Of a DNA stretch of 35,955 nucleotides, positions 1,004 to 33,927 are shown piece by piece; the stretch's first letter is position 1; each line of letters starts with the position of its first letter. This DNA is from Patescibacteria group bacterium (lineage in GTDB: Bacteria; Patescibacteriota; Minisyncoccia; Phycocordibacterales; UBA9973): contig JBBUEH010000023.1 in the NCBI GenBank assembly GCA_038078255.1, positions 1-35,955 of the forward strand, given 5' to 3'. The translations under genes and the position numbers were made by a program. The notes under the pieces were generated by a model. That model did no database searches. It saw nothing but the letters and a program-made list of their open reading frames with translations, and had not been told where the DNA came from.

Positions 1004-1120
1004 TAACTTTTTAAAATATCAACTTTTCTTCGGTACGGATTTTTTGAAGCTTAAAAAATCCTGAAGTTCTCGGCTCGTCAGCCTCGAAACCCCTACGAAA
1101 AGTTATATTTTAAAAAGTTA
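1004..1120. repeat. Palindromic mini-element family A, copy 1: 64-bp core (1031-1094) inside ~24-bp inverted arms
   Basis: Arms taactttttaaaatat(c)aacttttc / gaaaagttatattttaaaaagtta. Core cggtacggattttttgaagcttaaaaaatcctgaagttctcggctcgtcagcctcgaaacccct matches 12064-12127 at 63/64. Confidence 0.9.
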
Positions 1121-1136
1121 TTAATTAGAATTAGCC

Positions 1137-2354
1137 ATGTTATTTTCTTACAAAGCAAAATCAAAGACAGGAGAAATCATAGAAGGTGTATTGGATGCTT
1201 CGGATCGTATTACTATGGCTCATGAACTTAGGCTCCGTGGACAGACCCCTATTTCTGTATCAGAAAAAGGAGAAAATTTGTCTGATCAAATATCCAAGAT
1301 TTTAAATATTTTCTCCGGAGTAAAAGTTGCCGAACAAATTATTTTTACTAAAAACTTAAGTGGAATGTTAAAAGCAGGGCTTTCGCTTGCTCGAGCGTTG
1401 TCGGTGCTGGAAAAACAGACTAAAAACCAAACTCTTTTAAAAATTTTACAATCTCTCTCTTCCGATATTAATTCTGGCGAGACTTTTTCTTCTGGACTAG
1501 CGAAATTTTCCGAAGTGTTTTCAAAACTTTTTGTTTCTATGACAAAGGCCGGCGAAGAGTCGGGCAATCTATCTGGCGCCCTCTCCGACATCGGAGTGAA
1601 TTTAGAAAAGTCGCACTCTTTGACAAAAAAGATACATGGAGCATTGATTTATCCTGGTGTGATACTCTCGGCAATGGTTGTCATTGGAGTTTTAATGTTT
1701 GCTTTTGTGGTGCCAACGCTGGCGAACACCTTTAAAGAATTGGGCGTTACTCTACCCCTATCGACTCGTATTATTGTTTGGTTTGGGAACTTTTTCTCAA
1801 ACAATTTAATTTTTACTTTTGTTATTTTGATAATTATCGCTTTTGGACTCTTTTCTCTTTTCCGCGCAAAATTTATGGCGAAGTATATTGATTACGCTTT
1901 AATCAAAATTCCAGTTTTAAAGAACATGACTAAAGAACTAAACACTGCTCGCACTGCTCGCACCATATCATCTCTCCTGGTTTCGGGTGTTTCCATTGTT
2001 CGAGCAATTGAGATAACCGAAGACGTTGTGCAAAATACTTTGTTTAAAAAAGTTTTGAATGAAGCTCGGGGGGCGATCGAACGGGGAAGTCCATTTTTCG
2101 AAATTTTTAGAAATCATTCCGATCTCTACCCCGTGATGATGTCTGAAATGGTTCAAGTTGGCGAAGAAACAGGAAAATTATCGGACATGTTACTGCAGGT
2201 TGCGCTTTTTTATGAAGATGAAATTGAAAATAAAACAAAAAATCTTTCCACTATCATCGAGCCCGTGCTAATGATTGTCATCGGCGCCGGGGTTGGATTT
2301 TTCGCTATTTCCATGATTTCACCTCTTTATTCGGTGTTGGATAATATTAAATAA
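1137..2354 (+). CDS. pilC: Type IV pilus inner-membrane platform protein PilC/GspF
   Basis: Two GspF-type repeats (LSGMLKAGLSL...AGEESGNL; LLVSGVSI...VGEETGKL), hydrophobic segments, downstream of pilB. Confidence 0.93.
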   Translation: MLFSYKAKSKTGEIIEGVLDASDRITMAHELRLRGQTPISVSEKGENLSDQISKILNIFSGVKVAEQIIFTKNLSGMLKAGLSLARALSVLEKQTKNQTLLKILQSLSSDINSGETFSSGLAKFSEVFSKLFVSMTKAGEESGNLSGALSDIGVNLEKSHSLTKKIHGALIYPGVILSAMVVIGVLMFAFVVPTLANTFKELGVTLPLSTRIIVWFGNFFSNNLIFTFVILIIIAFGLFSLFRAKFMAKYIDYALIKIPVLKNMTKELNTARTARTISSLLVSGVSIVRAIEITEDVVQNTLFKKVLNEARGAIERGSPFFEIFRNHSDLYPVMMSEMVQVGEETGKLSDMLLQVALFYEDEIENKTKNLSTIIEPVLMIVIGAGVGFFAISMISPLYSVLDNIK

Positions 2355-2359
2355 CCTTT

Positions 2360-3823
2360 TTAATTTTTTACTTCCTGCCATGAAAGTATTTGATACTGAC
2401 TCGAAGTAAGAGGAAAGTTTGGTGGTGGAGCATAAAGCAAATTCGCATCATAGGTTATACTGCGAGTAGCATAGCCGCTTGAGTAAACCCCCTGACTATT
2501 TGTCCACGTGAAACCATATCTTTTATAAGATGCAATCATTCCGTAAAGTGTGACAATTGAACGTTTTTTTTCAGCACAAGTTCCTCCATAAGAAAATCTT
2601 CCCACTTTCTCATTTTGAGCTATAAGTGCTCCATCTATTTTTAAATCATCTTCACTAAAGAGTCCAACCATTACTCCAGCTTGTCCGATGAGACCCAAAG
2701 AATCCGTACCATTATAAAGAGTGTATAGAAGGTCATTATTTATTATAATATTTTTATAACCAGCAGGTGCAGGTACAGGCAAATCAGCTGCTGTTATAGT
2801 CAGCCGCGCTCCATTTATTTGTCCATTGATTACCACATGGTCTTCAATGAATATTATTCCATTCCCCGGAAACGCATAGTTTCCCTGTAGGGTTTGTGCG
2901 TTGATGCTCCAGCTTGGACTTCCGGTGCAACTTCCCAAAGTTGTCCATGAATTTATTTTATATAAGTCAAAAGTATCGTCTGTTTTTAAAACTATATGAT
3001 AACCAACAAAACCAACTCCAGATACATCTCTATAAAATCCACTCGATATTGCATCCGCTTTTAGGATGGCTAAATCAGTTGTGAAGCCAGAGAAATCAAT
3101 TAACGGCTGGCTTATTAGGCGTCCAGCTTCAAAAACATCTGGACGGGCAGGGAATGCTGTGGGAGACGTCGGATCAGCAGGAGACAGACAAGTGTGCACA
3201 CCCCAAGAATTAGTGGTAGTGCAAGCATCAGAATCTGCGTCTGTATAAGTTGTTGCTCCGCTCGTAACAATATTGTGCGCTAGACCGTCAAAACGAATTC
3301 CTCCATTGACGTGTACTGGTCCGAAAATTTCTGTGCCTGCGCCAAAACGAAATGCATTATTTCCCGCTACTGAGTATTTTGCGATAGAAGGTTTGGCTAC
3401 TTGGCTTTCTATCTTTCTTATATACGATGGATCAAGTGATGAAGATCCGGTAGATTTTATTTTTACCAGAGTGGAGCCCAAGATTGGAGCTGTGATGTCA
3501 AGAGAAAATTGTCCAACAGTATTGCCGCTTCTATCTTTGACAGCGTGTACATATGGTCCCGCCACTCCTGTACCGTCTTGGTAATCACTTGGAGCATGCG
3601 CTAGATGCCAGCGATAATAATCTATCCCAGCTTCCGCTGCCTGAAAGGCTTGTTCTCGATTAAAAGCTATGCGACCTGCTTTTATACTTATTGCTGCCCA
3701 AGAGGAAAGAGCGCCAATAAGCATGATGACAATTGTGGCAAATACCATAATTTGTACTATGATCATGCCAGCTAGCTGACAATTACTAACTGATTTTTTG
3801 GATTTTATAAATTTGTAAATCAT
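2360..3823 (-). CDS. PilX-like minor pilin / pilus-associated protein
   Basis: Basic leader then G|MIIVQIMVF hydrophobic helix without Glu+5, followed by REQAFQAAEAGI (PilX N-terminal type). Last of three co-oriented pilin-like genes. Confidence 0.7.
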   Translation of the reverse strand: MIYKFIKSKKSVSNCQLAGMIIVQIMVFATIVIMLIGALSSWAAISIKAGRIAFNREQAFQAAEAGIDYYRWHLAHAPSDYQDGTGVAGPYVHAVKDRSGNTVGQFSLDITAPILGSTLVKIKSTGSSSLDPSYIRKIESQVAKPSIAKYSVAGNNAFRFGAGTEIFGPVHVNGGIRFDGLAHNIVTSGATTYTDADSDACTTTNSWGVHTCLSPADPTSPTAFPARPDVFEAGRLISQPLIDFSGFTTDLAILKADAISSGFYRDVSGVGFVGYHIVLKTDDTFDLYKINSWTTLGSCTGSPSWSINAQTLQGNYAFPGNGIIFIEDHVVINGQINGARLTITAADLPVPAPAGYKNIIINNDLLYTLYNGTDSLGLIGQAGVMVGLFSEDDLKIDGALIAQNEKVGRFSYGGTCAEKKRSIVTLYGMIASYKRYGFTWTNSQGVYSSGYATRSITYDANLLYAPPPNFPLTSSQYQILSWQEVKN

Positions 3824-5757: not shown

Positions 5758-5778
5758 TATCTATATTTTAACTCATTA

Positions 5779-5787
5779 TGATATAAT
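5779..5787 (+). promoter_or_regulatory. Extended -10 promoter of tpiA, probably leaderless
   Basis: TGaTATAAT ending 7 nt before ATG 5795; no Shine-Dalgarno. Confidence 0.6.
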
Positions 5788-5794
5788 TTGCTAC

Positions 5795-6565
5795 ATGGCA
5801 AGAAAGAAAATAATAATAGGTAATTGGAAGATGAATCCGGGGACGATGAAAGATGCAGAACAATTATTTAAAAAAATAGTGAAGTCAGTAAATCGCACAA
5901 AAAAAACCGAAATAATAATTTGCGCGCCTTTTATTTACTTAGATGAATTAAATAAAATTCAAACAAGCAAGGTAAAGCTTGGTGCGCAAGATGCTTTCTG
6001 GGACGAGGCGGGACCTTATACTGGAGAGATTTCTTCTGACATGCTTTACAACCTTGGCGTCAGATATGTGATTTTGGGTCATTCAGAAAGGCGTTCTCTG
6101 GGCGAAACGAATACCTTGGTGAATAAAAAAATAAAAGGAGCCTTGGCTTCCGGACTGGTGCCGATACTTTGTGTGGGAGAGAATACCAGAGATGCCAGTC
6201 ATGCTTATTTTAATATGGTGAAAGAGCAAGTGGTGGAATGTCTCCAGGGAATTTCTAAAAATTCAATTTCCAAAGTGATCATTGCCTACGAGCCGGTGTG
6301 GGCACTTTCTAGTACTCTTCCTCGTAAAGATGCTACGGCGCTCGATGCGCAAGAGATGGCTATTTTTATTCGTAAAATACTGTCAGATAAATTTGGTTCT
6401 GAGGCAGGCAGAATTAGAATAATTTACGGTGGTTCTGCCAATGAAAAAGATGCGGGAGATTTTTTAAAAAATGGAGGGATCGATGGATTGTTGCCCGGTC
6501 GGGCCAGCCTGGACGCCTTAAAATTTGTCGAAATTATTAATATTGCAGAAAATTTTACAGAGTAA
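5795..6565 (+). CDS. tpiA: Triosephosphate isomerase
   Basis: GNWKMN, GHSERR, AYEPVWA, YGGS motifs. Confidence 0.96.
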   Translation: MARKKIIIGNWKMNPGTMKDAEQLFKKIVKSVNRTKKTEIIICAPFIYLDELNKIQTSKVKLGAQDAFWDEAGPYTGEISSDMLYNLGVRYVILGHSERRSLGETNTLVNKKIKGALASGLVPILCVGENTRDASHAYFNMVKEQVVECLQGISKNSISKVIIAYEPVWALSSTLPRKDATALDAQEMAIFIRKILSDKFGSEAGRIRIIYGGSANEKDAGDFLKNGGIDGLLPGRASLDALKFVEIINIAENFTE

Positions 6566-6631
6566 GGTTTTCTCGGGTCCTCGGAAAAAATCCCCAGACC
6601 AGCTCGAAAACCTTACTCTGTAAAATTTTCT
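6547..6631. repeat. Palindromic mini-element family A', overlapping the tpiA stop
   Basis: Perfect 26-bp inverted repeat (6547-6572 / 6606-6631) around tc-g-ggtc-ctcgg...cca-gacc-agc-tc. Same core grammar as the in-frame insert at 21226-21303. Confidence 0.9.
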
Positions 6632-6642
6632 AAAAAATATAT

Positions 6643-7875: not shown

Positions 7876-7876
7876 T

Positions 7877-8332: not shown

Positions 8333-8368
8333 AAGTATATTATAGCAAATTGTGTTAAAATTTCACTT

Positions 8369-10045
8369 ATGCAGAAATACGGCGAGTTATTGAGGGAACT
8401 TTTAGAAAAAAGAGGTATCATCGATCCAGTTCAAGCCGAGATTTTTTTAAACCCAGATTATAAACGAGATTTACACGATCCATTTTTAATGAAAGATATG
8501 GAGAAAGCCTGCGTCCGTCTTTATGAAGCAATAGATAATAATGAAAAAATAATTATTTATGCGGACTATGATTGTGATGGAATCCCGGGGGCAGTAATAT
8601 TAGTAGATTTATTAAAAGAAATAAAATACAAAAATTACGAAGTTTACATTCCACAAAGGAATTCCGAAGGGTACGGGCTAAATTTAGAAGCTATCAAGCA
8701 ATTTACCAAGTCTGAAGTGAAGTTGTTGATAACTATTGATCTCGGCATTACAGCAGTGGCTGAAGTGGCGCAAGCTGAAGTGGATGGTATTGATGTCATT
8801 ATTACGGATCACCACTTACCTCAAGATGTTTTACCTCGTGCATATGCAATTTTAAATCCTAAAGTGGATGATTATTCTGAAAAAATGCTGTGTGGATCCG
8901 GAGTGATATTTAAATTTGCGCAAGGATTTATAAAAAAGTATGGAGAATATTTTAAGACAAAAGAAGGCGCTGAAAAATGGATGCTCGACATGGCGGGATT
9001 AGCGACCCTCTCCGATATGGTTCCGCTTTTGGGCGAGAATAGAGCTCTGGCATATTTTGGTCTGAAAGTTTTAAGGAAGTCTCCTCGTCCGGGGTTGCAA
9101 AAACTTCTGGCAAAAATAAACATTGACCAAAAATATCTAACCGAAGATGATGTGGGTTTCATGATAACTCCACGGCTGAACGCTGCTTCACGGATGGATG
9201 ATCCGATGCGAGCATTTGAACTTCTGGCAACAGGGGATGAGGTGGAGGCGGGTAGGCTGGCCGACCATTTGTCAAAAATAAATGACGAAAGGAAAAGCAT
9301 TGTTGCGGGGATTATGCGTGAAATAAATAAAAAGTTTGAGAAGAGAGAAATGAGAGAAGTAATAGTTGTTGGTAGTCCAGATTGGCGGGTGGGTGTTTTG
9401 GGTCTGGTGGCCGGAAAAATTTCTGATGAATACCAAAAGCCGGTTTTTGTTTGGGGGAAAGATGAGAATGATTGTATCAAAGGTTCTTGTCGAAGTGATG
9501 GCTCAGTGTCTATCGTCGAACTCATGACGGAAACTCGAGAATCTTTTATAGATTTTGGCGGGCATGAATTGGCCGGAGGATTCACTGTCCACAGTGACAA
9601 AATTCATTTTCTAGAAGAAGTACTATCTAATAATTTTAAGAAAATTATTTCTGCTGATCTCCCCCTTACTAAGGGGGAGGTGCCAAAGGCGGAGGGGGTA
9701 TTTGATGTAAAATTGACCCTAGGAGAGGTCAATCTAAAAAACTGGAAAGAAATAGAAAAGCTGGCGCCCTTTGGTCTGGGCAATCCGAAGCCTGTTTTCT
9801 TTTTCGAGGGTGTAAAAATAGAAAAAATAAAAAAGTTTGGCAAAAATGGCTCGGGAGAACATTTGGAAATTATTTTTTCTGACGGAGGTGGCGCAAAAGC
9901 TAAGGCGATTTCCTTTTTTTCTAATCACGATTCTTTTGAAACTAAATTATCCGAAGGACTAAATGTCAATTTGCTTGCGTCGTTCGATTTATCTAGATTT
10001 CGGGGCAGAGAAGAGTTAAGATTAAGGGTGGAAGATATTATGTAA
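8369..10045 (+). CDS. recJ: Single-stranded-DNA exonuclease RecJ
   Basis: DYDCDG, ITIDLG, TDHH, PRLNAASR, GSCRS, GGHELAGG, LAPFGLGNPKP. Start moved to ATG 8369, which avoids the overlap with the HIT gene and has an extended -10 at 8353-8361. Confidence 0.95.
   Translation: MQKYGELLRELLEKRGIIDPVQAEIFLNPDYKRDLHDPFLMKDMEKACVRLYEAIDNNEKIIIYADYDCDGIPGAVILVDLLKEIKYKNYEVYIPQRNSEGYGLNLEAIKQFTKSEVKLLITIDLGITAVAEVAQAEVDGIDVIITDHHLPQDVLPRAYAILNPKVDDYSEKMLCGSGVIFKFAQGFIKKYGEYFKTKEGAEKWMLDMAGLATLSDMVPLLGENRALAYFGLKVLRKSPRPGLQKLLAKINIDQKYLTEDDVGFMITPRLNAASRMDDPMRAFELLATGDEVEAGRLADHLSKINDERKSIVAGIMREINKKFEKREMREVIVVGSPDWRVGVLGLVAGKISDEYQKPVFVWGKDENDCIKGSCRSDGSVSIVELMTETRESFIDFGGHELAGGFTVHSDKIHFLEEVLSNNFKKIISADLPLTKGEVPKAEGVFDVKLTLGEVNLKNWKEIEKLAPFGLGNPKPVFFFEGVKIEKIKKFGKNGSGEHLEIIFSDGGGAKAKAISFFSNHDSFETKLSEGLNVNLLASFDLSRFRGREELRLRVEDIM
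9659..9699. repeat. GC-rich palindromic mini-element in frame in recJ
   Basis: ctccccctt-act-aagggggag, then gcc-aaa-ggc, then ggagggggt. Read as LPLTKGEVPKAEG in an AT-rich linker. Confidence 0.7.
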
Positions 10046-10051
10046 AAAACT

Positions 10052-10537
10052 ATGATAAAACAAGATAAAGTAAAAATTTATACCGACGGAGCGGCGAAGG
10101 GCAATCCTGGGCGGGCAGGCTGGGGGGTGGTTTTTCTGGTGGGGGTGAATGATAAAGTGATTGAGATAGGTGGAAGTGTAAATCATGCGACGAATAATCA
10201 GATGGAATTGACAGCGCCGATAGAAGCGTTGAAATATATTTTGACTAGGCAAGACCTAGTCGGGTGTAATATAGAGATTATTTCTGATTCTAAATATGTA
10301 ATTTTGGGAATCACGGAGTGGATTTTCAACTGGCAGAAAAATAATTGGCGGAATGCCAACAGAAAGCCAGTCTTAAATCGGGAACTCTGGGAAGAACTTT
10401 ATGAACTTACGAATGAGTTGAAACCAAAATGGACCTATGTTAAAGGGCATAATGGGAACAAGTGGAACGATAGAACAGACCTAATTGCTACGAGCTTTGC
10501 CGAGGGTGAGCCAGTGGAACTTAAGAATAATAAGTAA
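10052..10537 (+). CDS. rnhA: Ribonuclease HI
   Basis: YTDGA.KGNPG, TNNQMEL, SDSKYV, W..NNW, VKGH.G..WND..D. Confidence 0.95.
   Translation: MIKQDKVKIYTDGAAKGNPGRAGWGVVFLVGVNDKVIEIGGSVNHATNNQMELTAPIEALKYILTRQDLVGCNIEIISDSKYVILGITEWIFNWQKNNWRNANRKPVLNRELWEELYELTNELKPKWTYVKGHNGNKWNDRTDLIATSFAEGEPVELKNNK
10243..10261. repeat. Single AGG-N5-CCT palindromic unit in frame in rnhA
   Basis: gactagg-caaga-cctagtc; the aggcaagacct core is identical to the comEC unit at 10913-10923. Confidence 0.6.
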
Positions 10538-10542
10538 GTTAA

Positions 10543-12054
10543 ATGCAAGATAGAATTTTTTATGGAGCTTGTTTTGGTTTTGTATTTGGAGTATTTTTGC
10601 GTTCCTTGGTTTTTGTAAATATTTATTGGGCGGTTTGGATTGGAGTAGTATCGTTTTTTCTAGTTTTATTTTTCAGCTTAGTTTCAAAGAATAATTGGGG
10701 AATTGTAATTTCGGTTTTCGTATTAGTATTTTCTTTGGGAATTTTAAGGTTTCATGTTGCTGATAAAATAGCACCGAGAATTTTAGAATTACAAGTGGGA
10801 CAAAAGGTAACTTTTTTCGGGAAAATTGTAGATGCGCCGGATATCAGAGAAAATAATCAAAAATTAACTGTTGAAATTTTGGCTCCTCAAGGTCTTGCCT
10901 TGGAATCTTTAAAGGCAAGACCTTTTCTCGCCAAAATTTTAGTCACGACAAATTTCGGTCAGGATTTTAAATATGGCGACCAGGTAAACTTTTCTGGCCG
11001 TTTAGAAAAACCAGAAAACTTTAGCACTGATCAGGGGAAAGAATTTGATTATATAAATTATTTACGCAAAGATGGAATATTTTTCGTCATGAATTATGGG
11101 AATGTAGAAATTATTTCGAGAGGAAACGGCAACAGAGTAAAAAGTGCGCTCTTTTTTGTTAAAGAAAAATTTCTGGAAAAAATGAATTTTGTAATATCTT
11201 CTCCTGAGAATTTACTGATGGGAGGACTTATTTTGGGTGAAAAATCTGCCTTTAATCAGGAATTAAGGACTAGTTTTGTGGATACAGGTACGATTCACAT
11301 CGTTGCCTTGTCTGGTTATAATGTGACAATAATTGCAGAATGGTTGATGAAATTATTTAAATTTTTGCCCCAAAATCTCGGTATCGGGGTGGGGATCTTT
11401 GCGATTTTACTTTTTGTTTTAATGACAGGAGGAAGTTCCACGGCGGTTCGGGCGGGAATAATGGCCACGCTAGTATTGGTGGCCCGGGCGACCGGGAGAA
11501 ACTATGATGTCGCCCGGGCGCTCTTGCTCGCTGGGGTTCTGATGATTTTTATCAACCCATTTGTGCTTGTCCATGATGTGTCTTTTCAACTTTCTTTCAT
11601 TGCTACGGTGGCGGTTATATTTTTTACTCCCAAAATTGAAAAATATTTTTTATGGGTGCCAGATTATTTCAAATTGCGGGACATAATTTCTGTCACCTGC
11701 GCCGCTTATGTCTTCGTTTTGCCTTTTATTCTTTATAAAATGGGTAATCTTTCCTTCGTTGCCTTGCCGGCGAATTTTTTAGTTTTACCTTTTATTCCAT
11801 TTACGATGATACTTGGCTTCCTCACTGGTTTTGCAGGATTTGTCTCACATACTCTGGCTGTGCCCCTGGGATTTTTATCTTATTTATTTCTGCGCTACGA
11901 ACTGGCCGTAATTAATTTTTTTGCACACATCCCCTTTGCCTCACTTTCTTTCCCTAATTTCCCACTTATCTTGACCTTTCTAATTTATGCCTATTTTATT
12001 TATATGCTTTTTGGCAGGAGTATAAAAGATTTCTTTTTAGAAAATCAAAAATAA
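10543..12054 (+). CDS. comEC: ComEC/Rec2 DNA-uptake channel (N-terminal OB/DUF4131-type + competence membrane domain, no MBL domain)
   Basis: FDYINYL, GTIHIVALSGYNV, STAVRAGIM, DVSFQLSF; many TM segments. Confidence 0.92.
   Translation: MQDRIFYGACFGFVFGVFLRSLVFVNIYWAVWIGVVSFFLVLFFSLVSKNNWGIVISVFVLVFSLGILRFHVADKIAPRILELQVGQKVTFFGKIVDAPDIRENNQKLTVEILAPQGLALESLKARPFLAKILVTTNFGQDFKYGDQVNFSGRLEKPENFSTDQGKEFDYINYLRKDGIFFVMNYGNVEIISRGNGNRVKSALFFVKEKFLEKMNFVISSPENLLMGGLILGEKSAFNQELRTSFVDTGTIHIVALSGYNVTIIAEWLMKLFKFLPQNLGIGVGIFAILLFVLMTGGSSTAVRAGIMATLVLVARATGRNYDVARALLLAGVLMIFINPFVLVHDVSFQLSFIATVAVIFFTPKIEKYFLWVPDYFKLRDIISVTCAAYVFVLPFILYKMGNLSFVALPANFLVLPFIPFTMILGFLTGFAGFVSHTLAVPLGFLSYLFLRYELAVINFFAHIPFASLSFPNFPLILTFLIYAYFIYMLFGRSIKDFFLENQK
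10889..10924. repeat. Inverted doublet of AAGG-N5-CCTT units in frame in comEC
   Basis: aaggtcttgcctt-N10-aaggcaagacctt, a perfect 13-bp inverted repeat; read as QGLALESLKARP. Confidence 0.8.
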
Positions 12055-12151
12055 GATTTTTGCCGGTACGGATTTTTTGAAGCTTAAAAAATCCTGAAAT
12101 TCTCGGCTCGTCAGCCTCGAAACCCCTTAAAAACCTTATTTTTGATTTTCT
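12039..12151. repeat. Palindromic mini-element family A, copy 2, between convergent comEC and sod
   Basis: Core 12064-12127 matches 1031-1094 at 63/64. Arms agaaaatcaaaaataagattttt / aaaaaccttatttttgattttct (22/23 complementary); the left arm contains the comEC stop. Confidence 0.9.
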
Positions 12152-17031: not shown

Positions 17032-17352
17032 ATGGTTAAAATAAACGTAGAATATGTGAGTGCTAATATAAAAAAGTTTATCACCAATTTAGATATTAAT
17101 TCTAACGCTAGCGTGAAGCATGCACTTTATGAATTGTATTTTATGGGAAATGAACTTACCTTTCCACTTTCTAGGTCGATTGGAGATAAAATGTTTGAAC
17201 TCAGAGTGACTAATCCGGAACATATAAGAATTATCTATGCTTTCTATAAAAATACAGCTTGGATTTTGCATGTGTTTAAAAAGAAAAGTAATAAAATACC
17301 ACAGAAGGAAATAGAGCTTGCAAAACAAAGACTTAAAATGCTTACTAGCTAA
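17032..17352 (+). CDS. RelE/ParE-superfamily toxin (HigB/Gp49-like)
   Basis: MFELRV...RIIYAF...ILHVFKKKSNKIPQKEIELAKQRL; lies upstream of an HTH gene. Confidence 0.85.
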   Translation: MVKINVEYVSANIKKFITNLDINSNASVKHALYELYFMGNELTFPLSRSIGDKMFELRVTNPEHIRIIYAFYKNTAWILHVFKKKSNKIPQKEIELAKQRLKMLTS

Positions 17353-17380
17353 TATTACATATGTGTGATATATTTAATCC

Positions 17381-17719
17381 ATGATCAAAAAACAAAAAAT
17401 AAAAAAATATAGTTTTTCAAAGGAAGAACTAGGAAAATTTAATCCTATTAGTTTTATTGAAGACCTTAAAGAATCAATGAAAGATTCTAAGTTTCGCGAG
17501 GCTTATAAAAACCTGGAATCCGAGTATTCTTTAATTAGGCAAATTATGGAAAGCAGAATTAAGAAAAACATTTCTCAAAAAATGCTTGCCAAGAGATTGG
17601 GCACAGGACAGTCTGCAGTGTCACGCTTGGAGTCCGGGACTTATAATCCAACATTTAAATTTGCGCAAAAACTCGCAAAAGCGCTCGAGACCGATTTGAC
17701 GATTACTTTTGGTAAATAA
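17381..17719 (+). CDS. XRE-family HTH antitoxin (HigA-like)
   Basis: SQKMLAKRLGTGQSAVSRLESGTYNPT helix-turn-helix, directly after the toxin. Confidence 0.85.
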   Translation: MIKKQKIKKYSFSKEELGKFNPISFIEDLKESMKDSKFREAYKNLESEYSLIRQIMESRIKKNISQKMLAKRLGTGQSAVSRLESGTYNPTFKFAQKLAKALETDLTITFGK

Positions 17720-18185: not shown

Positions 18186-19943
18186 ATGAAAAAAGTAATA
18201 AAAAATTTAATCAGAGAAGCCTTAAAGAATTTAAACATAGAAGATGTGGATTTTGTTGTGGAGCATCCAGAAGATCTAGAGAATGGGGATTATTCTACGA
18301 ATGTGGCCATGGTGTGCGCGAAGAATATGGGAGCTAATCCAAAAGAATTAGCCGAAAAAATAGTTTCTGAATTAAGGTCGAACCTTAAGAATTCAAAAAG
18401 GTTCGACCTTGGGGAAATTTCAAAAATTGAAGTGGCTGGCGCTGGGTTTATTAATATCTATTTATCTCCCAAATTCTTTCGTGGAAGTATTGAGGAAATT
18501 CTAAATAATAAAAAATTTGCTCAAAATCATCTTTTCTCTGGCCAGAAAATAATGATTGAATACACCGATCCGAATCCTTTCAAGCCCTTTCATATTGGAC
18601 ATTTGATGACGAATGCGATAGGAGAGTCCGTGGCGAGAATTCTAGAATCTTCTGGCGCTACGGTTTTCCGAGCAAATTATCAGGGGGATGTGGGCTTGCA
18701 TGTGGCGAAAGCTATTTGGGGTTTACGAAAACGAGGATTACCAAATCCAGATTTTTCAACTGCTGCGAAAGCAAATTACATAGGAGAATGTTATTCCTTG
18801 GGTGCTGGAGAGTATGAACCTATCTACCTAGGTGACGCAGAAAAAGAATCTCCTGCAAAAAAAGAAATAGATGCAATAAATAAAAAAATCTACGATCATA
18901 GCGATAAAAAAATAAATGCAATCTATGATTGGGGATTTAAGGTAACGATGGAAGCTTTTGAAGATTTGTACAAAATACTTGGAACAAAATTTGATTTTTA
19001 TTTTCTAGAAAGTCAGATGGCGCCTATTGGAGAAGGTATTGTGAAAGACAATTTAGGAAAAGTATTTGAGGAAAGTGACGGCGCTATTGTTTTTAAGGCG
19101 GAGAAACACGACCCCAAACTTCATACTAGAGTTTTTATTACATCGCAAAATTTGCCGATGTATGAAACTAAAGAATTAGGTTTAACGATAGAAAAATTTA
19201 AAACAAAACCTGACCTTGATTTTTCTATTGTAGTGACAGCCAATGAACAGGCAGATTATATGAGAGTTGTGGCCAGAGCTCTTTCTTTGATTTATCCAAA
19301 ATATACAGATAAAATGAAACATATCACTCACGGCATGATGCGACTTTCTTCGGGGAAAATGTCTTCGAGAAAGGGTAATGTTGTGACAGGAGAATTGCTC
19401 ATTCGAGATACAATTGATCTTGTTTCTGAAAGGTTGAAAGATCATGATTGGGATGAAGAGCAGAAAAACAAAATTGCTGAGCAAGTTGGTGTAGCCGCAA
19501 TAAAATATTCAATATTAAAACAATCAATTAGTGGAGATATTATGTATGATTTTGAGAAATCGATTTCTTTTGAAGGTGATTCGGGGCCGTATCTGCAATA
19601 TTCCTATGCTCGAGCAAATTCTGTAATAGAAAAAGCGAAAAAAGAAAATATTTTACCAGATCCACATATTCAAGATACGCCTGTCGAAGTTTTCGAAATT
19701 GAAAAAATGTTGTATAGATTTCCGGAAGTTGTTTTGCGATCTGCCTCCGAATACGAACCACATTACATTGCAAATTATCTCATTGAAATTGCTCGGGCCT
19801 TTAACAGTTTTTATGGGAATACCCTCATCATAGATATAACAGACAAAACCTCGCCGTATAAAGTTGCTTTAACCTTCGCTTTTTCTTTTGTGATGAAAAA
19901 AGGCTTGCATTTATTAGGCATTGAAGCTCCGGAGAAGATGTGA
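18186..19943 (+). CDS. argS: Arginyl-tRNA synthetase
   Basis: GDYSTNVA, AGAGFIN, PNPFKPFHIGH, KMSSRKG, GDSGPYLQY, C-terminal GIEAPEKM. Confidence 0.97.
   Translation: MKKVIKNLIREALKNLNIEDVDFVVEHPEDLENGDYSTNVAMVCAKNMGANPKELAEKIVSELRSNLKNSKRFDLGEISKIEVAGAGFINIYLSPKFFRGSIEEILNNKKFAQNHLFSGQKIMIEYTDPNPFKPFHIGHLMTNAIGESVARILESSGATVFRANYQGDVGLHVAKAIWGLRKRGLPNPDFSTAAKANYIGECYSLGAGEYEPIYLGDAEKESPAKKEIDAINKKIYDHSDKKINAIYDWGFKVTMEAFEDLYKILGTKFDFYFLESQMAPIGEGIVKDNLGKVFEESDGAIVFKAEKHDPKLHTRVFITSQNLPMYETKELGLTIEKFKTKPDLDFSIVVTANEQADYMRVVARALSLIYPKYTDKMKHITHGMMRLSSGKMSSRKGNVVTGELLIRDTIDLVSERLKDHDWDEEQKNKIAEQVGVAAIKYSILKQSISGDIMYDFEKSISFEGDSGPYLQYSYARANSVIEKAKKENILPDPHIQDTPVEVFEIEKMLYRFPEVVLRSASEYEPHYIANYLIEIARAFNSFYGNTLIIDITDKTSPYKVALTFAFSFVMKKGLHLLGIEAPEKM
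18374..18410. repeat. Inverted doublet of AAGG-N5-CCTT units in frame in argS
   Basis: aaggtcgaacctt-N11-aaggttcgacctt, a perfect 13-bp inverted repeat; read as RSNLKNSKRFDL. Confidence 0.8.
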
Positions 19944-20330: not shown

Positions 20331-20448
20331 TTGAATATAGGCATGGAAGGGGAAATCACCTCTGAGCCCTGGAAAGAAAGCCTTTGGCATTAGAATCCAG
20401 CGGGTAAGCCCGTTATAGCAGTAATGAGAAGCAACCAAGGTGGTACCA

Positions 20449-20473
20449 CGATTCGACTTCGCTCATCGCAGGC
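20449..20473. repeat. TTCGAC...TCA.C.CAGGC mini-hairpin in the T-box antiterminator loop
   Basis: cgat-TC-gacttcgc-TC-atcg-caggc; similar to 33528-33551 in tatD. Confidence 0.65.
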
Positions 20474-20479
20474 GAAAAG

Positions 20480-20534
20480 AAACTCGTCCTTGTATCGTAA
20501 CTCTTTGAGTTATTGTACGGGGACGAGTTTTTTT
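20480..20534 (+). terminator. Intrinsic terminator of the ileS T-box
   Basis: aaactcgtcc...ggacgagttt stem followed by a T run; mutually exclusive with the antiterminator. Confidence 0.85.
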
Positions 20535-20586: not shown

Positions 20587-23500
20587 ATGGAAGAGAATAA
20601 TAAAAAAAGTGAAGCATCTCTATGCGAGGAAAAAATTCTGGAATTTTGGCGTGAGAATAATATTTTTGAAAAGTCCGTAGAGCAGAGGAAGGGCAAGAAG
20701 GAATTTATTTTCTATGATGGTCCGGTTACAGCAAATTCTAAACCAGTTCTTCATACTATGGTGCCATTCTCTTTTAAAGATGTTATTCCTCGCTACAGAA
20801 CGATGCGTGGCTATCATGTGCGTAGAAAAGGGGGCTGGGATACGCACGGTCTGCCGGTAGAATTGCAGATAGAAAAAAAACTTGGATTTAAGTCAAAAAA
20901 CGATATAGAAAATTATGGCATAGCAGCTTTCAATAAATTATGCAAAGAAAGCGTATGGGAATTTATTGATTTATGGAAAAATTTTACCAAAAGAATGGGT
21001 TATTGGGCTGATCAAGAAAATGCTTATGTAACTTATCACAACAACTACATTGAGTCCGTCTGGAATGTAGTAAAAAAAATAAACGAGCAGAAATTACTTT
21101 ATAAAGATTACAAAGTTGTACCTTGGTGTCCGAGGTGTGGTACAGCACTCTCTTCGCACGAGCTTGCGCAAGGGTATGAAGATGTGAAGGATTTGTCGGT
21201 CTATGTGAAGTTTAAAATACGCTCTATCGGTGAAAGATTTTCTCAGGTCCTCGGTTCTCCGGGTCCCTCTCCCGGCCAGACCATTCGAAAACCTTCCACC
21301 GATTCCGCTTTTATTCTGGCTTGGACAACGACACCATGGACTCTTCCCGGAAATGTGGCACTTGCAGTGGGGAAAGATATTGATTATGTGAAGGTAAAAG
21401 TTGAAAACGAAATATTAATTTTAGCTAAAGCTCGAATTGCCATTCTCGGTGAAAATCCGGAGATAATTGGCGAAATAAAAGGCAAAGATTTAATTGGCCT
21501 AGAATACGAACCGCTTTTTCCATTTTTTGCCGATACTATTTCCGAAAACGAGAAACCCAAATTAAAAAATGCGTATAAAGTTTACCTTGCGGATTTTGTA
21601 AATACAGAAGACGGCACAGGTATCGTGCATACGGCTGTAATGTATGGACAGGATGATTTTGAATTGGGAACCAAGGCTGGACTGCCTAAACATCACTTAG
21701 TAAATCCCGAAGGAAAATTTATAAAAGGTACAGGATTTTTGGAAGGTAGAGTTGTAAAACCCGCCCGAACGACTGATGCCGTTCAGTCGGGCGGGGAAAA
21801 AGATGTCGCAATTGACATAATTATAGATTTAGCACATAGGGGACTTTTATTTAAAAAAGAAAAGTACGAACATAGTTACCCGCATTGCTGGAGGTGTCAT
21901 ACAGCACTCATCTACTATGCGCGGGATTCTTGGTATATCAAAATGTCTGACCCAAAAATTAAAAAAAATTTAATAGCTCAAAATGAAAAGATAAATTGGG
22001 AACCGAAATATATCCGTGAGGGGCGTTTTGGTGAATGGCTCAGAGAAATAAAAGATTGGGCGATTTCTCGGGAGCGCTACTGGGGGACACCCCTGCCTGT
22101 TTGGCTTGATAAAAATAATAATTTTCGGGTGCTGGGAAGTTTTGAGGAACTAAAGAAATTTGTCAAAAAATCTGATAATAAATATTTCGTGATGCGTCAC
22201 GGTGGTTCTGTTGCCAATCAAAAGAATGTCGGTAGCTTGAATCCCGGAGAAGAAAATGATGTTTTGACAAGCGAGGGTAGAGAGCAGGTCAAATTACAAG
22301 CGAAAAAGTTGCCAGAAAAGCCTGATCTGATTGTTTCTTCTAACTTTATTAGGACCCAACAAACAGCAGAAACGGTGGCCGAAATTTTTGGAATTTCCAA
22401 AGAGCAAATTATCCTAAACGAAGAATTAAGAGAAGCTGGAGCTGTAAAATCACCCAATGAAAACCAAGAGGATATTCGAAAGAGAGTGATTGGGGTCTTG
22501 CAGGATTTAGAAAAAAAATACTCCGGAAAAAATATTTTAATTATTTCTCACGAGTATCCACTGCGCGTGTTTCTGTCTGCCCACGAATCTTTAAGCGAGC
22601 AAGAAGAATTCCACAATTTCAACAATAAATATCTTGTTATGCAGAATGCCGAAGTATTCCAATGTGATTTTTTACCCTTACCAAGAAATAATAATGGTCA
22701 GATAGATTTACATCGTCCATTTATTGACGATCTAGAATTGGTTGGAGAAGATGGATCTACGCTTGTTCGAGTCAAAGAAGTGATGGATGTCTGGTTTGAT
22801 TCTGGAGCGATGCCTTTTGCGCAAGATCATTATCCTTTTGAGAACAAAAAGTGGGTGGAAGGAAAGGGTTACCCGGCGGACTATATTTGTGAAGCCATAG
22901 ATCAGACTCGAGGGTGGTTTTACACGCTTCATGCGATTGGAATTTTAATGGGTCGAGGTAAAGCATATAAAAATGTTATTTGCTTGGGACACTTACTCGA
23001 TGTCACTGGTAAAAAAATGTCTAAATCTATCGGCAATGTTGTCGACCCATGGCAAGTGATGGATAAATACGGCGTGGATACATTGCGCCTCTGGATGTAT
23101 TCTGTCAATCAGCCGGGTGAATCGAAAAACTTTGATGAGAAGACAGTGGCGTTATTGCACCAGCAGGTTTTCGGCTTACTTTACAATGTACTCGCTTTTT
23201 ATGAATTATATAGAGATAAAAAAAAAGAAACCAACGACCGTCCAAAATCAAAAAATATTCTTGACCAATGGATTTTAGCTAGATTAGATGAATTAATAAA
23301 AATTTCTACAGAGAATCTCGACAATTATAAACTTCTCGAGCCTACGAGAGCAATACGAGATTTTATAGGAGATCTTTCAACTTGGTATTTGCGTCGTTCC
23401 AGAGAACGAATTAAAGAAGGGGACAAAGATGCAAAACAAACTTTGTATTTTGTTTTAAAAACTCTAGCGAAAGTCATAGCGCCATTAGCGCCATTTACAG

Positions 23501-24576
23501 CAGAAGATATTTGGTTGAGGTTGAAAAATGAAAATGACCCAGAAAGCGTACATTTAACACAATGGCCTACTCAAAAATTTAAAATTTTCTTCTTCACTAG
23601 AGCCAAAGTTTTAGAGAAAATGAAAACAGTCAGAAGTATGGTTACTCTTGGTCTTGAGGCTCGCCAGAAGTCGGGGATAAAAGTTCGCCAGCCGTTAAGT
23701 CGACTAGAGATTATAGCTGAAGAATTATCAGATCAGTATATTGATATCATTAAAGATGAATTAAATATAAAGAATATTATTTATTTATTAAAAATAAAAA
23801 TAGGTATAACTAAAGTAACTCTAAACACAGATATTACAGAGGAATTAAAAGCCGAAGGGGAATACCGAGAATTTATTAGAGAACTCCAAAACAAGCGCAA
23901 GAAGCTGGGACTAAATCCAGGGGACAAGATGGTGATGAGCATAGAGGAGATTTATAAAAAATACAAAATCATGCCGAACCTACAGGAGCACATGCTTCGA
24001 GTGGCGGCAGTGGCATCTTTGATTTGTGATAATTTCAGTGAGCCACTTCCAAAAGAAGATATTATTACTGCTTGTTTACTTCATGATATGGGGAATATAA
24101 TTAAATTTAAGTTAGATTATTTTCCGGAAGTTTTACAACCACAGGGTTTAGAATATTGGCAGAATGTTAAAGATGAGTATGTAAAAAAGTATGAAAATGA
24201 CGAGCATGTAGCTACGAATAAAATAGCTCAAGAACTTCAAGTCTCTGATGAAATTTCAGAATTAATCAATGCTGTTAGTTTTCTGGGCGCACCCAATCTT
24301 GTTTTAGGAGAAAATTTTAGTAAAAAAATTATGGAATATTGCGATGATCGAGTGAGCCCGCTTGGGGTGGTGAGTCTAGAGGAGCGACTGATGGATTTAA
24401 GAAAACGCTATAGTCACAAGAGTCATTATACGCCCGAAAAACGAGATGCCTTCGATCAGGCTATGAGGCAAATAGAAAAACAAATTTTCGCAAAGTGCAA
24501 AATTAAACCGGAAGATATAAATAATGAGACAGTCAAAACAATAATTTCAAGCTTGCGGGATTTTGTGGTAAAATAG
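20587..24576 (+). CDS. ileS: Isoleucyl-tRNA synthetase (IleRS2-type) with inserted histidine-phosphatase domain and C-terminal HD domain
   Basis: FYDGP, GWDTHGLPVE, AWTTTPWTLPGN, GTGIVHTA, YPHCWRC, DWAISRERYWGTP, DVWFDSG, EAIDQTRGWFY, KMSKS. Ile T-box upstream. Confidence 0.95.
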   Translation: MEENNKKSEASLCEEKILEFWRENNIFEKSVEQRKGKKEFIFYDGPVTANSKPVLHTMVPFSFKDVIPRYRTMRGYHVRRKGGWDTHGLPVELQIEKKLGFKSKNDIENYGIAAFNKLCKESVWEFIDLWKNFTKRMGYWADQENAYVTYHNNYIESVWNVVKKINEQKLLYKDYKVVPWCPRCGTALSSHELAQGYEDVKDLSVYVKFKIRSIGERFSQVLGSPGPSPGQTIRKPSTDSAFILAWTTTPWTLPGNVALAVGKDIDYVKVKVENEILILAKARIAILGENPEIIGEIKGKDLIGLEYEPLFPFFADTISENEKPKLKNAYKVYLADFVNTEDGTGIVHTAVMYGQDDFELGTKAGLPKHHLVNPEGKFIKGTGFLEGRVVKPARTTDAVQSGGEKDVAIDIIIDLAHRGLLFKKEKYEHSYPHCWRCHTALIYYARDSWYIKMSDPKIKKNLIAQNEKINWEPKYIREGRFGEWLREIKDWAISRERYWGTPLPVWLDKNNNFRVLGSFEELKKFVKKSDNKYFVMRHGGSVANQKNVGSLNPGEENDVLTSEGREQVKLQAKKLPEKPDLIVSSNFIRTQQTAETVAEIFGISKEQIILNEELREAGAVKSPNENQEDIRKRVIGVLQDLEKKYSGKNILIISHEYPLRVFLSAHESLSEQEEFHNFNNKYLVMQNAEVFQCDFLPLPRNNNGQIDLHRPFIDDLELVGEDGSTLVRVKEVMDVWFDSGAMPFAQDHYPFENKKWVEGKGYPADYICEAIDQTRGWFYTLHAIGILMGRGKAYKNVICLGHLLDVTGKKMSKSIGNVVDPWQVMDKYGVDTLRLWMYSVNQPGESKNFDEKTVALLHQQVFGLLYNVLAFYELYRDKKKETNDRPKSKNILDQWILARLDELIKISTENLDNYKLLEPTRAIRDFIGDLSTWYLRRSRERIKEGDKDAKQTLYFVLKTLAKVIAPLAPFTAEDIWLRLKNENDPESVHLTQWPTQKFKIFFFTRAKVLEKMKTVRSMVTLGLEARQKSGIKVRQPLSRLEIIAEELSDQYIDIIKDELNIKNIIYLLKIKIGITKVTLNTDITEELKAEGEYREFIRELQNKRKKLGLNPGDKMVMSIEEIYKKYKIMPNLQEHMLRVAAVASLICDNFSEPLPKEDIITACLLHDMGNIIKFKLDYFPEVLQPQGLEYWQNVKDEYVKKYENDEHVATNKIAQELQVSDEISELINAVSFLGAPNLVLGENFSKKIMEYCDDRVSPLGVVSLEERLMDLRKRYSHKSHYTPEKRDAFDQAMRQIEKQIFAKCKIKPEDINNETVKTIISSLRDFVVK
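21226..21303. repeat. Family A' palindromic element (78 nt, 26 codons) in frame in ileS
   Basis: 17-bp arms (15/17 complementary) around tc-a-ggtc-ctcgg...cca-gacc-at-tc; read as IGERFSQVLGSPGPSPGQTIRKPSTD. Confidence 0.85.
21760..21795. repeat. CCCGCC...GGCGGG palindromic element (36 nt) in frame in ileS
   Basis: cccgcccga...tcgggcggg arms; read as PARTTDAVQSGG. Confidence 0.8.
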
Positions 24577-25803: not shown

Positions 25804-25821
25804 TTATGTTATAATTACAGG

Positions 25822-27771: not shown

Positions 27772-27799
27772 TGCCCAGTAGGTAATTTTTGTAAATTAT

Positions 27800-29197: not shown

Positions 29198-29200
29198 AAT

Positions 29201-30478: not shown

Positions 30479-30525
30479 ATATTTTTTCTGTGGGCTTTTG
30501 GGGTATTTTATGCTATTATATTCTT

Positions 30526-31599: not shown

Positions 31600-33071
31600 T
31601 GACAGAAAAAAAATCTTTCTATATTACAACAACCATACCGTATGTAAATGCAGAACCTCATATTGGTTTTGCGCTGGAGCTTGTACAGGCTGATGTCTTG
31701 GCGCGCTACCATCGTCTAGTAAACAAAGATGTGTTTTTTAATACGGGGACGGATGAGCATGGGCAAAAAATTTGGGAGGCCAGTCAGAAAGAAGGTAAAG
31801 ATGCGCAAGATTATGTTGATAAATATGCCCAAAATTATCTAAATTTAAAAAATATCCTTAATCTTTCTAACGACAACTTTATTAGGACGACCGATTCGAG
31901 ACACATTCAAGCGGCCCAAGAATTTTGGCGTCTATGTAACGAAAAAGGCGATATTTATAAAAAGAAATATAAAGGACTTTATTGTGTGGGGTGTGAGAAA
32001 TTTATTACAGAAAAGGATTTGGTAAATGGTAAATGCGAATTTCATCTGACACTCATTCCGGAGTTGGTAGAGGAAGAAAATTATTTTTTCAAATTAACAA
32101 ATTACAAAGAGCAACTTTTGGAATATCTTTCTAAAGCAGAATCAATCTTGCCAGAATGGCGCAGAGCTGAGGCTATAAATTTTGTTCAAAGTGACATGGA
32201 AGATTTTTCAATTTCCCGTGTGAAGAAAAGATTTTCTTGGGGGGTGCCAATACCGGGAGATGACGAACAAGTGATGTATGTTTGGTTCGATGCTTTTGTA
32301 AATTATCTTTCTACATTGGGTTGGCCCGCCTCCGCTAAAGCTTCGGCGGGCGAGCCCGACAGCCAAGGGGATTTATTTGAAAAGTTTTGGTTGAAAGGCG
32401 AAAAAGTACAAGTAGCTGGAAAAGACATGGTCAAATTTCAGTCAGTCATGTGGCAGGGGATGCTCATGTCAGCTGGTTTACCGACAACGAATACCATCGT
32501 TTATCATGGCTTTATTACTGGAGATGGGGGAGTCAGGATGTCCAAGTCCATCGGTAATGTTATAAATCCGAACGAAATTGTAAAAGAATACAGCACGGAT
32601 GCTCTGCGATATTTTCTTTTACGAGAAATTTCTTCTTTTGAAGATAGTCCGTTTACGATGGAGAGATTTAAGGAAGCATATAATGCAAATTTAGCGAACG
32701 GATTAGGAAATTTAGCGTCGCGCATACTCACTCTTTCAGAAAAATATTTAGAAAAGTGTCCCGAAATTCCGGAGAAGTCTAACTTTACAGAATATTTTAG
32801 TTTTTTTGAAAAGTTTGATATTAAACAAGCGACTGACTATATTTGGAACGAAATCGGAGAATTAGATAAATTTATCCAAGAAACTGAACCGTTTAAGGTG
32901 GTAAAAGTAGATGAGAAAAAAGGAAAAAAATTAATTTCAGATACGGTGATTCGTTTATATAAAATAGCTCGAATGTTGAATCCAATAATGCCGGAGACAA
33001 ATGTTTTAATTAAAAATTTAATTAGAGCAAACAAAAAGCCCGAGAAGCCGTTGTTTCCGAGGAAAGATTAA
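31599..33071 (+). CDS. metG: Methionyl-tRNA synthetase (short form)
   Basis: YITTTIPYVNAEPHIGF, TGTDEHGQK, YCVGCE, YVWFDA, GKD, RMSKS, LFPR C-terminus. Confidence 0.96.
   Translation: MTEKKSFYITTTIPYVNAEPHIGFALELVQADVLARYHRLVNKDVFFNTGTDEHGQKIWEASQKEGKDAQDYVDKYAQNYLNLKNILNLSNDNFIRTTDSRHIQAAQEFWRLCNEKGDIYKKKYKGLYCVGCEKFITEKDLVNGKCEFHLTLIPELVEEENYFFKLTNYKEQLLEYLSKAESILPEWRRAEAINFVQSDMEDFSISRVKKRFSWGVPIPGDDEQVMYVWFDAFVNYLSTLGWPASAKASAGEPDSQGDLFEKFWLKGEKVQVAGKDMVKFQSVMWQGMLMSAGLPTTNTIVYHGFITGDGGVRMSKSIGNVINPNEIVKEYSTDALRYFLLREISSFEDSPFTMERFKEAYNANLANGLGNLASRILTLSEKYLEKCPEIPEKSNFTEYFSFFEKFDIKQATDYIWNEIGELDKFIQETEPFKVVKVDEKKGKKLISDTVIRLYKIARMLNPIMPETNVLIKNLIRANKKPEKPLFPRKD
32324..32358. repeat. GCCCGCC...GGCGGGC palindromic element in frame in metG
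   Basis: gcccgcc-TC-cgctaaagct-TC-ggcgggc; read as PASAKASAGE. GCCCG recurs 30 nt apart. Confidence 0.8.
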
Positions 33072-33072
33072 A

Positions 33073-33927
33073 ATGCCACAATACATCGATATCCACAGCC
33101 ATGTGAATTTCAAGGCCTTTGACGCAGACAGGGATGCGGTTATTCGTCGCACCTTAGAAAATAATACTTGGGTGATAAATGTCGGTACGCAGACAGATAC
33201 TTCCAGAAAGGCAGTTGAAATAGCAAATCAGTACAAAGAGGGGGTATATGCGATCATAGGACTTCATCCAATACATACTGGGGAATCTTTTCATGATGAG
33301 GAGGAGTTGGGTCAAGGTGGCAAGGATTTCACCTCCCGTGGAGAAGTTTTTGACACAGAATTTTACAGAGAACTTTTAAAAGACCCGAAAGTCGTGGGTA
33401 TCGGAGAATGTGGATTGGATTATTACAGATGTAATGAAGAATCAATTTCAAAACAAAAAGAAGCTTTCGTGAGTCAAATAAAATTAGCCAATGAATTTAA
33501 TAAACCATTAATGCTGCATATACGCAATGGTTCGACAGGTTCACCACAGGCAATCCCAAATAGAAATGCATATTCTGACGCGCTGGAGCTTTTAAAAACT
33601 CACGCAAAAGTCAAAGGCGATGTGCATTTTTTTGCAGGGACTTTGGGAGAGGCGAAAGGTTTTTTAGATTTTGGTTTTACTTTATCTTTCACTGGAGTCA
33701 TCACCTTCACTCACGATTATGATGAGATAATAAAAAACACACCGCTCGAGATGATTATGTCCGAGACAGATTCTCCATATGTCACACCTGTGCCCCACCG
33801 AGGTAAACGGAATGAACCTGTTTTTGTGAAGGAAATAGTCAAAAGGATTGCCAAAATAAAAGATCTGCCAGAAGAAGAAGTGGCGCAAGCGATAATAGCC
33901 AATGCAAAAAGAGTATTTACTTTTTAA
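33073..33927 (+). CDS. tatD: TatD-family DNase
   Basis: DIHSH, GLHP, GIGECGLDY, LHIR, HFF, ETDSPY, RGKRNEP. Confidence 0.93.
   Translation: MPQYIDIHSHVNFKAFDADRDAVIRRTLENNTWVINVGTQTDTSRKAVEIANQYKEGVYAIIGLHPIHTGESFHDEEELGQGGKDFTSRGEVFDTEFYRELLKDPKVVGIGECGLDYYRCNEESISKQKEAFVSQIKLANEFNKPLMLHIRNGSTGSPQAIPNRNAYSDALELLKTHAKVKGDVHFFAGTLGEAKGFLDFGFTLSFTGVITFTHDYDEIIKNTPLEMIMSETDSPYVTPVPHRGKRNEPVFVKEIVKRIAKIKDLPEEEVAQAIIANAKRVFTF
33528..33551. repeat. TTCGAC...TCA.C.CAGGC mini-hairpin in frame in tatD
   Basis: tggt-TC-gacaggt-TC-acca-caggc; read as GSTGSPQA in a loop after LHIRN. Confidence 0.65.

Follow-up and report, generated by a model that had tools for sequence, protein, structure and literature searches.

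Dispersed one-strand hairpin repeats in a Patescibacteria genome and their probable pairing with small GIY-YIG nucleases

Introduction

Hairpin repeats that act through one DNA strand are known from the Ssn/NTS-SRM system, in which, according to the passages of Chenal et al. (2025, PMC11893778) that deal with it, a small single-domain GIY-YIG gene is flanked by inverted hairpin repeats, the repeat is directional with an unpaired 5′ tag, copies are dispersed and one strand is active. SsnA is described there as cutting the tagged strand only, as single-stranded DNA (ssDNA), and neither the reverse strand nor RNA. Here we describe five families (A-E) of hairpin repeats in a stretch of 35,955 nucleotides, called the window throughout, which is contig JBBUEH010000023.1 of a Patescibacteria group bacterium (GCA_038078255.1). 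The elements resemble REP/Ssn-type hairpin repeats with in-frame inserts like those of the Rickettsia palindromic elements (RPE), and by the features compared below they fall outside the SRM, RAYT and IS605 groups. We consider it probable that they are one-strand hairpin families in which the purine-rich strand folds, likely as ssDNA with sheared G·A pairs, and is likely nicked by small GIY-YIG nucleases that would drive its spread.

Other described systems share parts of this picture. The GTAG- and CGTC-tagged REPs are, in the relevant sections of Di Nocera et al. (2013, PMC3733652), tagged stem-loops of 20-40 bp with inverted heterodimers and intragenic copies in DNA repair genes, features that recur here; the same sections note an unpaired GA in P. 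aeruginosa GTAG-24. The elements of the window have other tags and cores, and families D and E reach 80-110 nucleotides (nt) with variable long arms. RPE, as the pertinent part of PMC10969869 presents them, likewise are palindromes inserted, with the reading frame kept, into various unrelated housekeeping genes, in a genome that is reduced, but they are about 150 bp long with a conserved encoded peptide, whereas the elements described here measure 19-113 bp, are read in several frames and lie in both orientations, with several families per genome; length and peptide, rather than sequence comparison, set them apart from RPE. The DNA mini-hairpins d(GCGNAGC) are unusually stable according to the part of PMC13037366 concerned with them, r(GCGAAAGC) melting at 39 °C against 76.5 °C for DNA. 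Only family B has this type of cap (GC-GNA-G with a sheared G·A pair), there nested on a tandem-GA stem and usually with a G·T pair or a bulge beside it. We found no paper in the open-access literature that describes these repeats in Patescibacteria.

Results

Seven hairpins of the window are copies of five repeat families

The genome comprises 521,524 bp in 23 contigs and is 87% complete; the window is its contig C23, the + strand of which holds 85% of the coding sequence (GC skew +0.125). Its housekeeping genes include those for pilus assembly, tpi, pgk, recJ, comEC, ileS, metS, tatD and ssb. An earlier note, made from the letters of the window alone, had reported seven hairpins of the form stem-TC-inner-TC-stem′ on the + strand, and each of the seven strings is present where it was placed. 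The A·C arm mismatches that it gave (one in 12039-12151, two in 21226-21303), the covarying pair next to the loop (G-C at 6575/6603, A-T at 21245/21284) and the gcGAAg on the minus strand at 20449 are also correct. All seven hairpins belong to five dispersed families of repeats, listed here together with the T-box leader that holds one of the hairpins.

1014-1110, − strand: family D element, copy 1, a three-way hairpin with its GA/GA arm at 1067-1088, between genes with T2SSE and T2SSF (pilus) domains
6547-6631, − strand: family E element with 26-bp arms and core GGTCCTCGG..CCAGACC on the + strand, at the tpi-pgk junction, spanned by a contig of run X5
12039-12151, − strand: second copy of family D, at the end of comEC and convergent with sod, with its GA/GA arm at 12100-12121
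20335-20494, + strand: ileS T-box leader (Rfam RF00230, 44.7 bits, E 2.5e-8, below the gathering score)
20449-20468, − strand: family B element, reading GA-GC-GAA-GTC-GA on the minus strand, in the antiterminator loop of the T-box
21226-21303, − strand: family E element within the ileS reading frame, at an insertion hot spot that is empty in 11 relatives
32324-32351, − strand: family C element within the metS reading frame (PASAKASAG), its minus strand having a GAA/GGA 3x3 loop
33528-33546, − strand: family A element, a decayed copy, in frame in tatD (GSTGSP)

Contigs of another study (run X5) span the hairpins at 6547, 20449, 21226, 32324 and 33528 with 0 differing letters, so these five are not assembly artefacts; among the matches listed there is no spanning X5 piece for the two D copies (1067 and 12100), which are near-identical paralogues with a closing stem of just 3 bp. 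The loop at 32324 is a 3x3 TCC/TTC loop, and the hairpin at 33528 has a G·T pair on the + strand, contrary to the polarity. The earlier note had seen no hairpin facing the other way; at the loosest stringency that it accepted, GA/GA loops appear on the + strand at 6444 and 33123, neither of them in a repeat family.

The loop letters by themselves carry little information. A family-blind scan of the + strand of the window (stem of at least 3) gave 8 TC and 3 GA hairpins. Genome-wide, the bare TC/TC motif with short inners occurred 72 times against 42 in one dinucleotide shuffle, and under other settings the genome and shuffle counts were 83/72, 86/84, 26/22, 16/22 and 33/27; the genome-wide comparison used a single shuffle and the codon shuffle kept intergenic DNA unchanged, so that both are rough. 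The bare motif is thus barely above chance, and the signal resides in the conserved families.

The families are dispersed, partly related and insert in frame

Family A was found in 93/151 genomes of the class, family E in 37/151 genomes of the family and family D in 40/61 genomes of the genus (a tally that includes G374, a locus of which was left out of the analyses), and families B and C in 9/71 and 14/71 genomes of the order, with reversed-pattern controls near zero for all five. Among the matches listed, 80 of the 94 records with a family E repeat were labelled Nomurabacteria, Paceibacterota or Patescibacteria, and some had other labels. The copies in ileS, metS and tatD are in-frame insertions relative to the orthologues. 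A search of viral contigs gave 117 matches to the E core, only 2 of them with an arm score of at least 16 and both chance-like, no match to D and no relative of the A/B-linked nuclease described below; the joints listed for contig-only runs held no clean excision or inversion of an element. The Rfam search of the window returned no match at the gathering level, and family D gave only weak matches to miRNA models.

The families had been called unrelated, which is not true of all of them. A and B have a common frame, combine into inverted heterodimers and are found beside the same genes; D and E are alike in their architecture of long covarying arms and interchange at one site in ileS. Arms of E often terminate in C-like GCTTCG loops. 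At the ileS site, 25 of 31 loci could be parsed (6 unparsed): 11 are empty (12 aa), 4 have a loop of 21-22 aa without a hairpin, and the occupied ones hold 5 E, 2 D and 3 other hairpins. This one protein site accepts E in both orientations and several frames, and therefore indicates repeated turnover.

Two side observations concern family E. At the ileS loci L138, L146 and L148 the host codons on the 5′ side of the site recur in mirrored form at the distal ends of the arms (ATTGGT/ACCAAT in L148), which resembles an inverted target duplication. The 5′ half of the E core matches the variable loop and T-arm of a tRNA-Thr (G000:C2:7160-7172).

Conserved mismatches favour folding of the purine-rich strand

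When the loop letters were left free, TC/TC was present in 39 of 44 stem-bearing cores of family A and in 17 of 17 of family B, with reversed controls at 0, in genomes picked partly because they hold family A; family C has mostly T·C/T·C 3x3 loops. On the purine strand of family D, flanks of which were partly fixed by the search pattern, GA/GA occurs in 17/51 and G-N-A/GA in most of the remainder. For family E, the arm pairs were counted in 101 copies found without use of arm letters: of pairs 2-3, 46 copies had C·T at both, 15 at one and 40 at neither, and no copy had G·A. The conservation of TC/TC that the earlier note expected of further copies is thus real in A and B, and the loop is one variant among others in D and E, so that it is common and not invariant.

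The other mismatches of E are polarised too (matches with an arm score below 16, 1/195, were left out). The distal loop has 105 C·T against 2 G·A, and isolated mismatches are A·C in 65 against G·T in 31 (p=7e-4) and C·T in 31 against G·A in 10. The stem sequence is free, with all four pair types in use at pairs 16 and 18, and the geometry is fixed: a bulge and one covarying pair, then the GA tandem, a bulged G close to pair 13 and, at pairs 21-24, a loop rich in GA. Pair 1 is Watson-Crick in 191/194 (A-T 168, G-C 22). A k-turn reading of E was ruled out, the bulge lying on the wrong side of the GA pair as we take the k-turn to be defined. Taken over the families, the conserved mismatches favour folding of the purine-rich strand. 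Strand polarity of this sort is to be expected wherever a hairpin works on one strand, and by itself it calls for no new mechanism.

Copies of E that lie antisense to a gene (n=21) have 24 C·T at pairs 2-3, 21 in the distal loop and no G·A, so the mismatch polarity belongs to the element and not to the mRNA. This bears on the other proposal of the earlier note, that selection for a weak mRNA fold yields both the orientation and the TC/TC and A·C mismatches: the antisense copies keep C·T on the pyrimidine strand of the element and so have the stronger fold in the mRNA, arm quality shows no difference between orientations (p=0.16), and B and C are without orientation bias. As that proposal would have it, a sense bias also holds between co-directional genes, and the skew of isolated wobbles is stronger in sense copies of E (51:19) than in antisense ones (12:9). 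We regard it as very unlikely to be the explanation; a weaker mRNA fold cannot create the polarity of the mismatches, but may contribute to orientation.

The folded strand is more likely ssDNA than RNA

The earlier note had favoured an ssDNA fold of the minus strand. The purine strand does fold, whichever strand of a contig is called +, and ssDNA is the likelier form in view of the triloops of family B (GNA in 21/34, with all four N present), the DNA-specific stability of such caps, the class of the linked enzymes and the fact that the folded strand is mostly untranscribed. For D and E the ssDNA form would be an extrapolation from these families. An RNA working fold, in which an antisense or excised purine-strand transcript would be a mobile intermediate or a regulator, seems improbable to us: the folded strand is usually the non-transcribed one, B has GNA triloops, no Rfam family reaches the gathering score in the window, and the related SsnA ignores RNA in the experiments described in that part of PMC11893778. 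It draws support from the greater stability of the purine strand as RNA in 122/140 sense and 31/38 antisense copies of E, and from Di Nocera et al., who in the section concerned take G·T wobbles of REPs as a sign of RNA function (PMC3733652).

Orientation follows transcription rather than replichore

Over all families we collected 381 distinct copies, 45 of them unassignable; orthologous copies are included in the orientation and family counts, so copies are not independent. The pyrimidine (TC) strand is the mRNA strand in 246/336, with sense:antisense ratios of 163:51 in genes and 83:39 between co-directional genes. The bias is confined to families A, D and E, with B at 16:16 and C at 14:11. 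The 22 copies of the window's own genome divide 15:5, with 2 unassigned. Counted by host gene, E gives 28:14 in genes and 24:12 in intergenic positions.

Replichore class was assigned with a codon log-odds classifier trained on three genomes (leave-one-genome-out 157/178, 56/58 and 45/45), which replaced a plain GC3-skew assignment on 3-kb loci that was poor in one genome (32/75). Leading-strand genes gave 146:46 and lagging-strand genes 51:28. According to the relevant part of PMC5027513, IS200/IS605 elements place their active strand on the lagging template, and HUH (Y1/RAYT-like) transposases that insert the folded strand into the lagging-strand template would make polarity follow the replichore. 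In leading-strand genes the purine strand is mostly on the other template, and the lagging class, which would have to reverse, stays 51:28 sense (against at most 30% sense under replichore targeting, p=2.6e-10, for copies that are not independent); replichore targeting is therefore rejected. The genome does contain six Y1_Tnp genes, and there is a weak difference in orientation between leading- and lagging-strand genes, but the Y1_Tnp genes are flanked by other palindromes without GA/GA loops, and genome G342 has no Y1_Tnp match although its 700 kb contain 9 copies of E and 19 of D. The HUH explanation is largely refuted and we give it very little weight.

Each of these six Y1_Tnp genes (G000 contigs C1, C2, C12, C14, C16 and C18; loci L002-L007) is bracketed by its own perfect palindrome, and copies of some of these palindromes also lie in frame in housekeeping genes.

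The earlier note had asked for orientation to be set against transcription and replichore genome-wide. A bias of about 3:1 with transcription emerged, fixed neither to the + strand nor to the replichore, with 5 of the 22 copies in the genome opposite. The seven hairpins all face one way mainly because most genes in the window do; at a bias of 0.73, seven of seven facing the same way in one window has a probability of 0.11. The + polarity is what this transcription bias gives in a window where most genes run one way. It is not lagging-strand targeting that makes the pyrimidine strand the commoner mRNA strand, but likely a survival filter after insertion that favours copies with fewer stop codons, with tolerated peptides of S/G/P/T and perhaps with a weaker fold in the mRNA. 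With stop codons as the only filter, the expected values are 0.59-0.65 (E), 0.58-0.60 (A/B), 0.51 (C) and 0.44 (D), and that for E agrees with its count by host gene in genes; family A is mostly read in the PSTSSG frame (18/23).

GA/GA and C-like hairpins flank small GIY-YIG genes in relatives

GA/GA hairpins lie within about 170 nt of 47 of 59 distinct metagenomic homologs of one small GIY-YIG gene (21 of 80 loci left out as unparsed or duplicate), against a background of 94/1514 genes (6%). Their cores are those of A and B, the purine strand has a TTATT/ATATT tag on its 5′ side, and they often form an inverted pair, which is present at 24/53 homolog loci. An AG/AG control scored 1 and a CA/CA control 0. 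The small GIY-YIG genes form two clades, and GA/GA hairpins adjoin 9/19 genes of one and 0/38 of the other (4 of 61 loci, long or unmatched, left out). In a second GIY-YIG group, C-like TTC/TTC hairpins lie upstream of 6/6 genes as judged by eye, a regular expression catching 1/6. The closest solved proteins to the A/B-linked GIY-YIG are UPF0213; NCBIfam gave no GIY-YIG family, and the proteins of loci L468 and L469, which may be Ssn-like, fall in the same broad clade.

The enzymes linked to these hairpins are thus GIY-YIG nucleases, and neither HUH enzymes nor integron integrases, both of which the earlier note had named, were found associated with them. There is no integrase among the 34 open reading frames (ORFs) of the window, the rest of the genome not having been searched for one, and no attC-type cassette array; the copies lie in and between housekeeping genes, unlike an array with cassette spacing, and so differ from integron attC sites. 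Nor do families A-E show the link to a RAYT, or the flanked Y1 HUH gene, that marks the GTAG REP/RAYT (REPtron) system, and their orientation, which follows the gene in both replichore classes, separates them from IS200/IS605 with its lagging-template bias.

In relatives, then, the A/B and C-like hairpins share with Ssn/NTS the small nuclease gene flanked by hairpin repeats, the directional repeat with an unpaired 5′ tag and the dispersed copies, and by analogy one strand would be the active one. They differ in that the A/B partner is UPF0213-like, and may or may not belong to cd10448 as Ssn nucleases do; in the tags, TTATT/ATATT here and CGTC in NTS as given in those passages of PMC11893778; in the tandem G·A of the stems; and in the share of copies inside genes, 214/381 here against the 2% reported there for NTS. 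Our motif strings were not found in the searched supplement of that paper, the remainder and figures of which could hold GA-type SRMs.

A separate arrangement was seen at G000:C9:4300-4900 (L001). A tRNA-like sequence is split there into two halves, each with a hairpin insert at the anticodon position, and the space between the halves is taken up by a small GIY-YIG gene and a tRNA-Ser; G342 has a similar layout (L689).

Other features of the window

The B element is part of a 30-nt insert in the antiterminator loop of the T-box, and leader and terminator occupy 20335-20534 upstream of ileS; the leader tolerates this repeat insert. The IleRS itself (20587-24576) is a protein of 1329 aa with an internal histidine-phosphatase and a C-terminal HD domain. 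A 36-nt GC-rich hairpin in frame in ileS (21760-21795, PARTTDAVQSGG) draws very many contigs of other organisms, and since the contig depth there is so high (above 1500 at 21775 in three runs), it represents a highly abundant repeat family. At least six further hairpin elements of the window are without a TC/TC loop. Palindromes of this kind lie at 9641-9700, 10245-10259, 10889-10924, 11481-11520, 18371-18410 and 35897-35916, most of them inside genes (recJ, rnhA, comEC, argS) and several with copies elsewhere in the genome. A Gp49/DUF891 gene and a helix-turn-helix gene at 17032-17719 are a probable toxin-antitoxin pair.

Discussion

The reading that we find probable is as follows. The purine strand would fold as ssDNA, closed by sheared G·A pairs; by analogy with SsnA and NTS, small GIY-YIG nucleases would bind and nick this folded strand; and the element would spread by nick-primed copying. 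Families D and E would follow the same logic as A and B.

Several results weigh against this reading. The A/B-linked clade is absent from the window's genome as assembled, in which only a distant GIY-YIG (31.5 bits) was found. No nuclease gene adjoins any D or E copy among the 162 neighbouring ORFs, which were read without a family scan, and the small GIY-YIG genes in five E-rich genomes have no D or E flank. The published SRM motif has no match in the window or in loci L458, L459, L468, L469 and L499. Folding energies make the purine strand more stable under both DNA and RNA parameter sets, so they do not decide between the two, and the preferences for G·T and G·A apply to RNA as well. The isolated wobbles of antisense E copies, given above, are close to even; E counted by host gene is only 12:8 in lagging-strand genes; the sense share is 76% in leading- and 65% in lagging-strand genes (Fisher p=0.07), which leaves room for a small replichore term; and the intergenic bias is not accounted for by reading frames.

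For D and E in particular, it is possible, if doubtful in our view, that convergence alone is at work: one-strand hairpins tolerate G·A and G·T over C·T and A·C, and the families would then have no common enzyme class or ancestor. The lack of an enzyme near D or E and the near-chance frequency of the bare motif fit this, as do the differing loop shapes: A/B have 2x2 loops and C has 3x3 loops, D has either GA/GA or GCA/GA, and in E the loop is optional. It is harder to reconcile with the ties of A/B and of C-like hairpins each to small GIY-YIG genes, with the swapping of D and E at one ileS site and with the C-like ends of E arms.

Beyond the folding and nicking of a purine strand, a wider reading can be held tentatively, in which ssDNA hairpin repeats with a single sheared-G·A grammar have radiated in the Paceibacteria, each of them read by a GIY-YIG clade of its own. 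D and E would be "ruler" versions, with a 21-bp arm, a fixed G bulge and a free stem, recognised by shape and placed into protein loops by nick-primed copying.

If the proposed pairing of hairpin and nuclease is true, the UPF0213 family, the function of which is unknown, gains a specific ssDNA target. The candidate pairs of enzyme and target are a UPF0213-like nuclease of 87 aa with a GA/GA hairpin of 25 nt, and the second GIY-YIG group with a GAA/GAA hairpin; proteins of the L459 type measure 87-93 aa and those of the L682 type 78 aa. Such pairs would add to the site-specific ssDNA nucleases of the Ssn family and hint at a route by which CGTC-like repeats that have no transposase could spread. 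The elements also account for many of the short insertions in housekeeping proteins of the Candidate Phyla Radiation.

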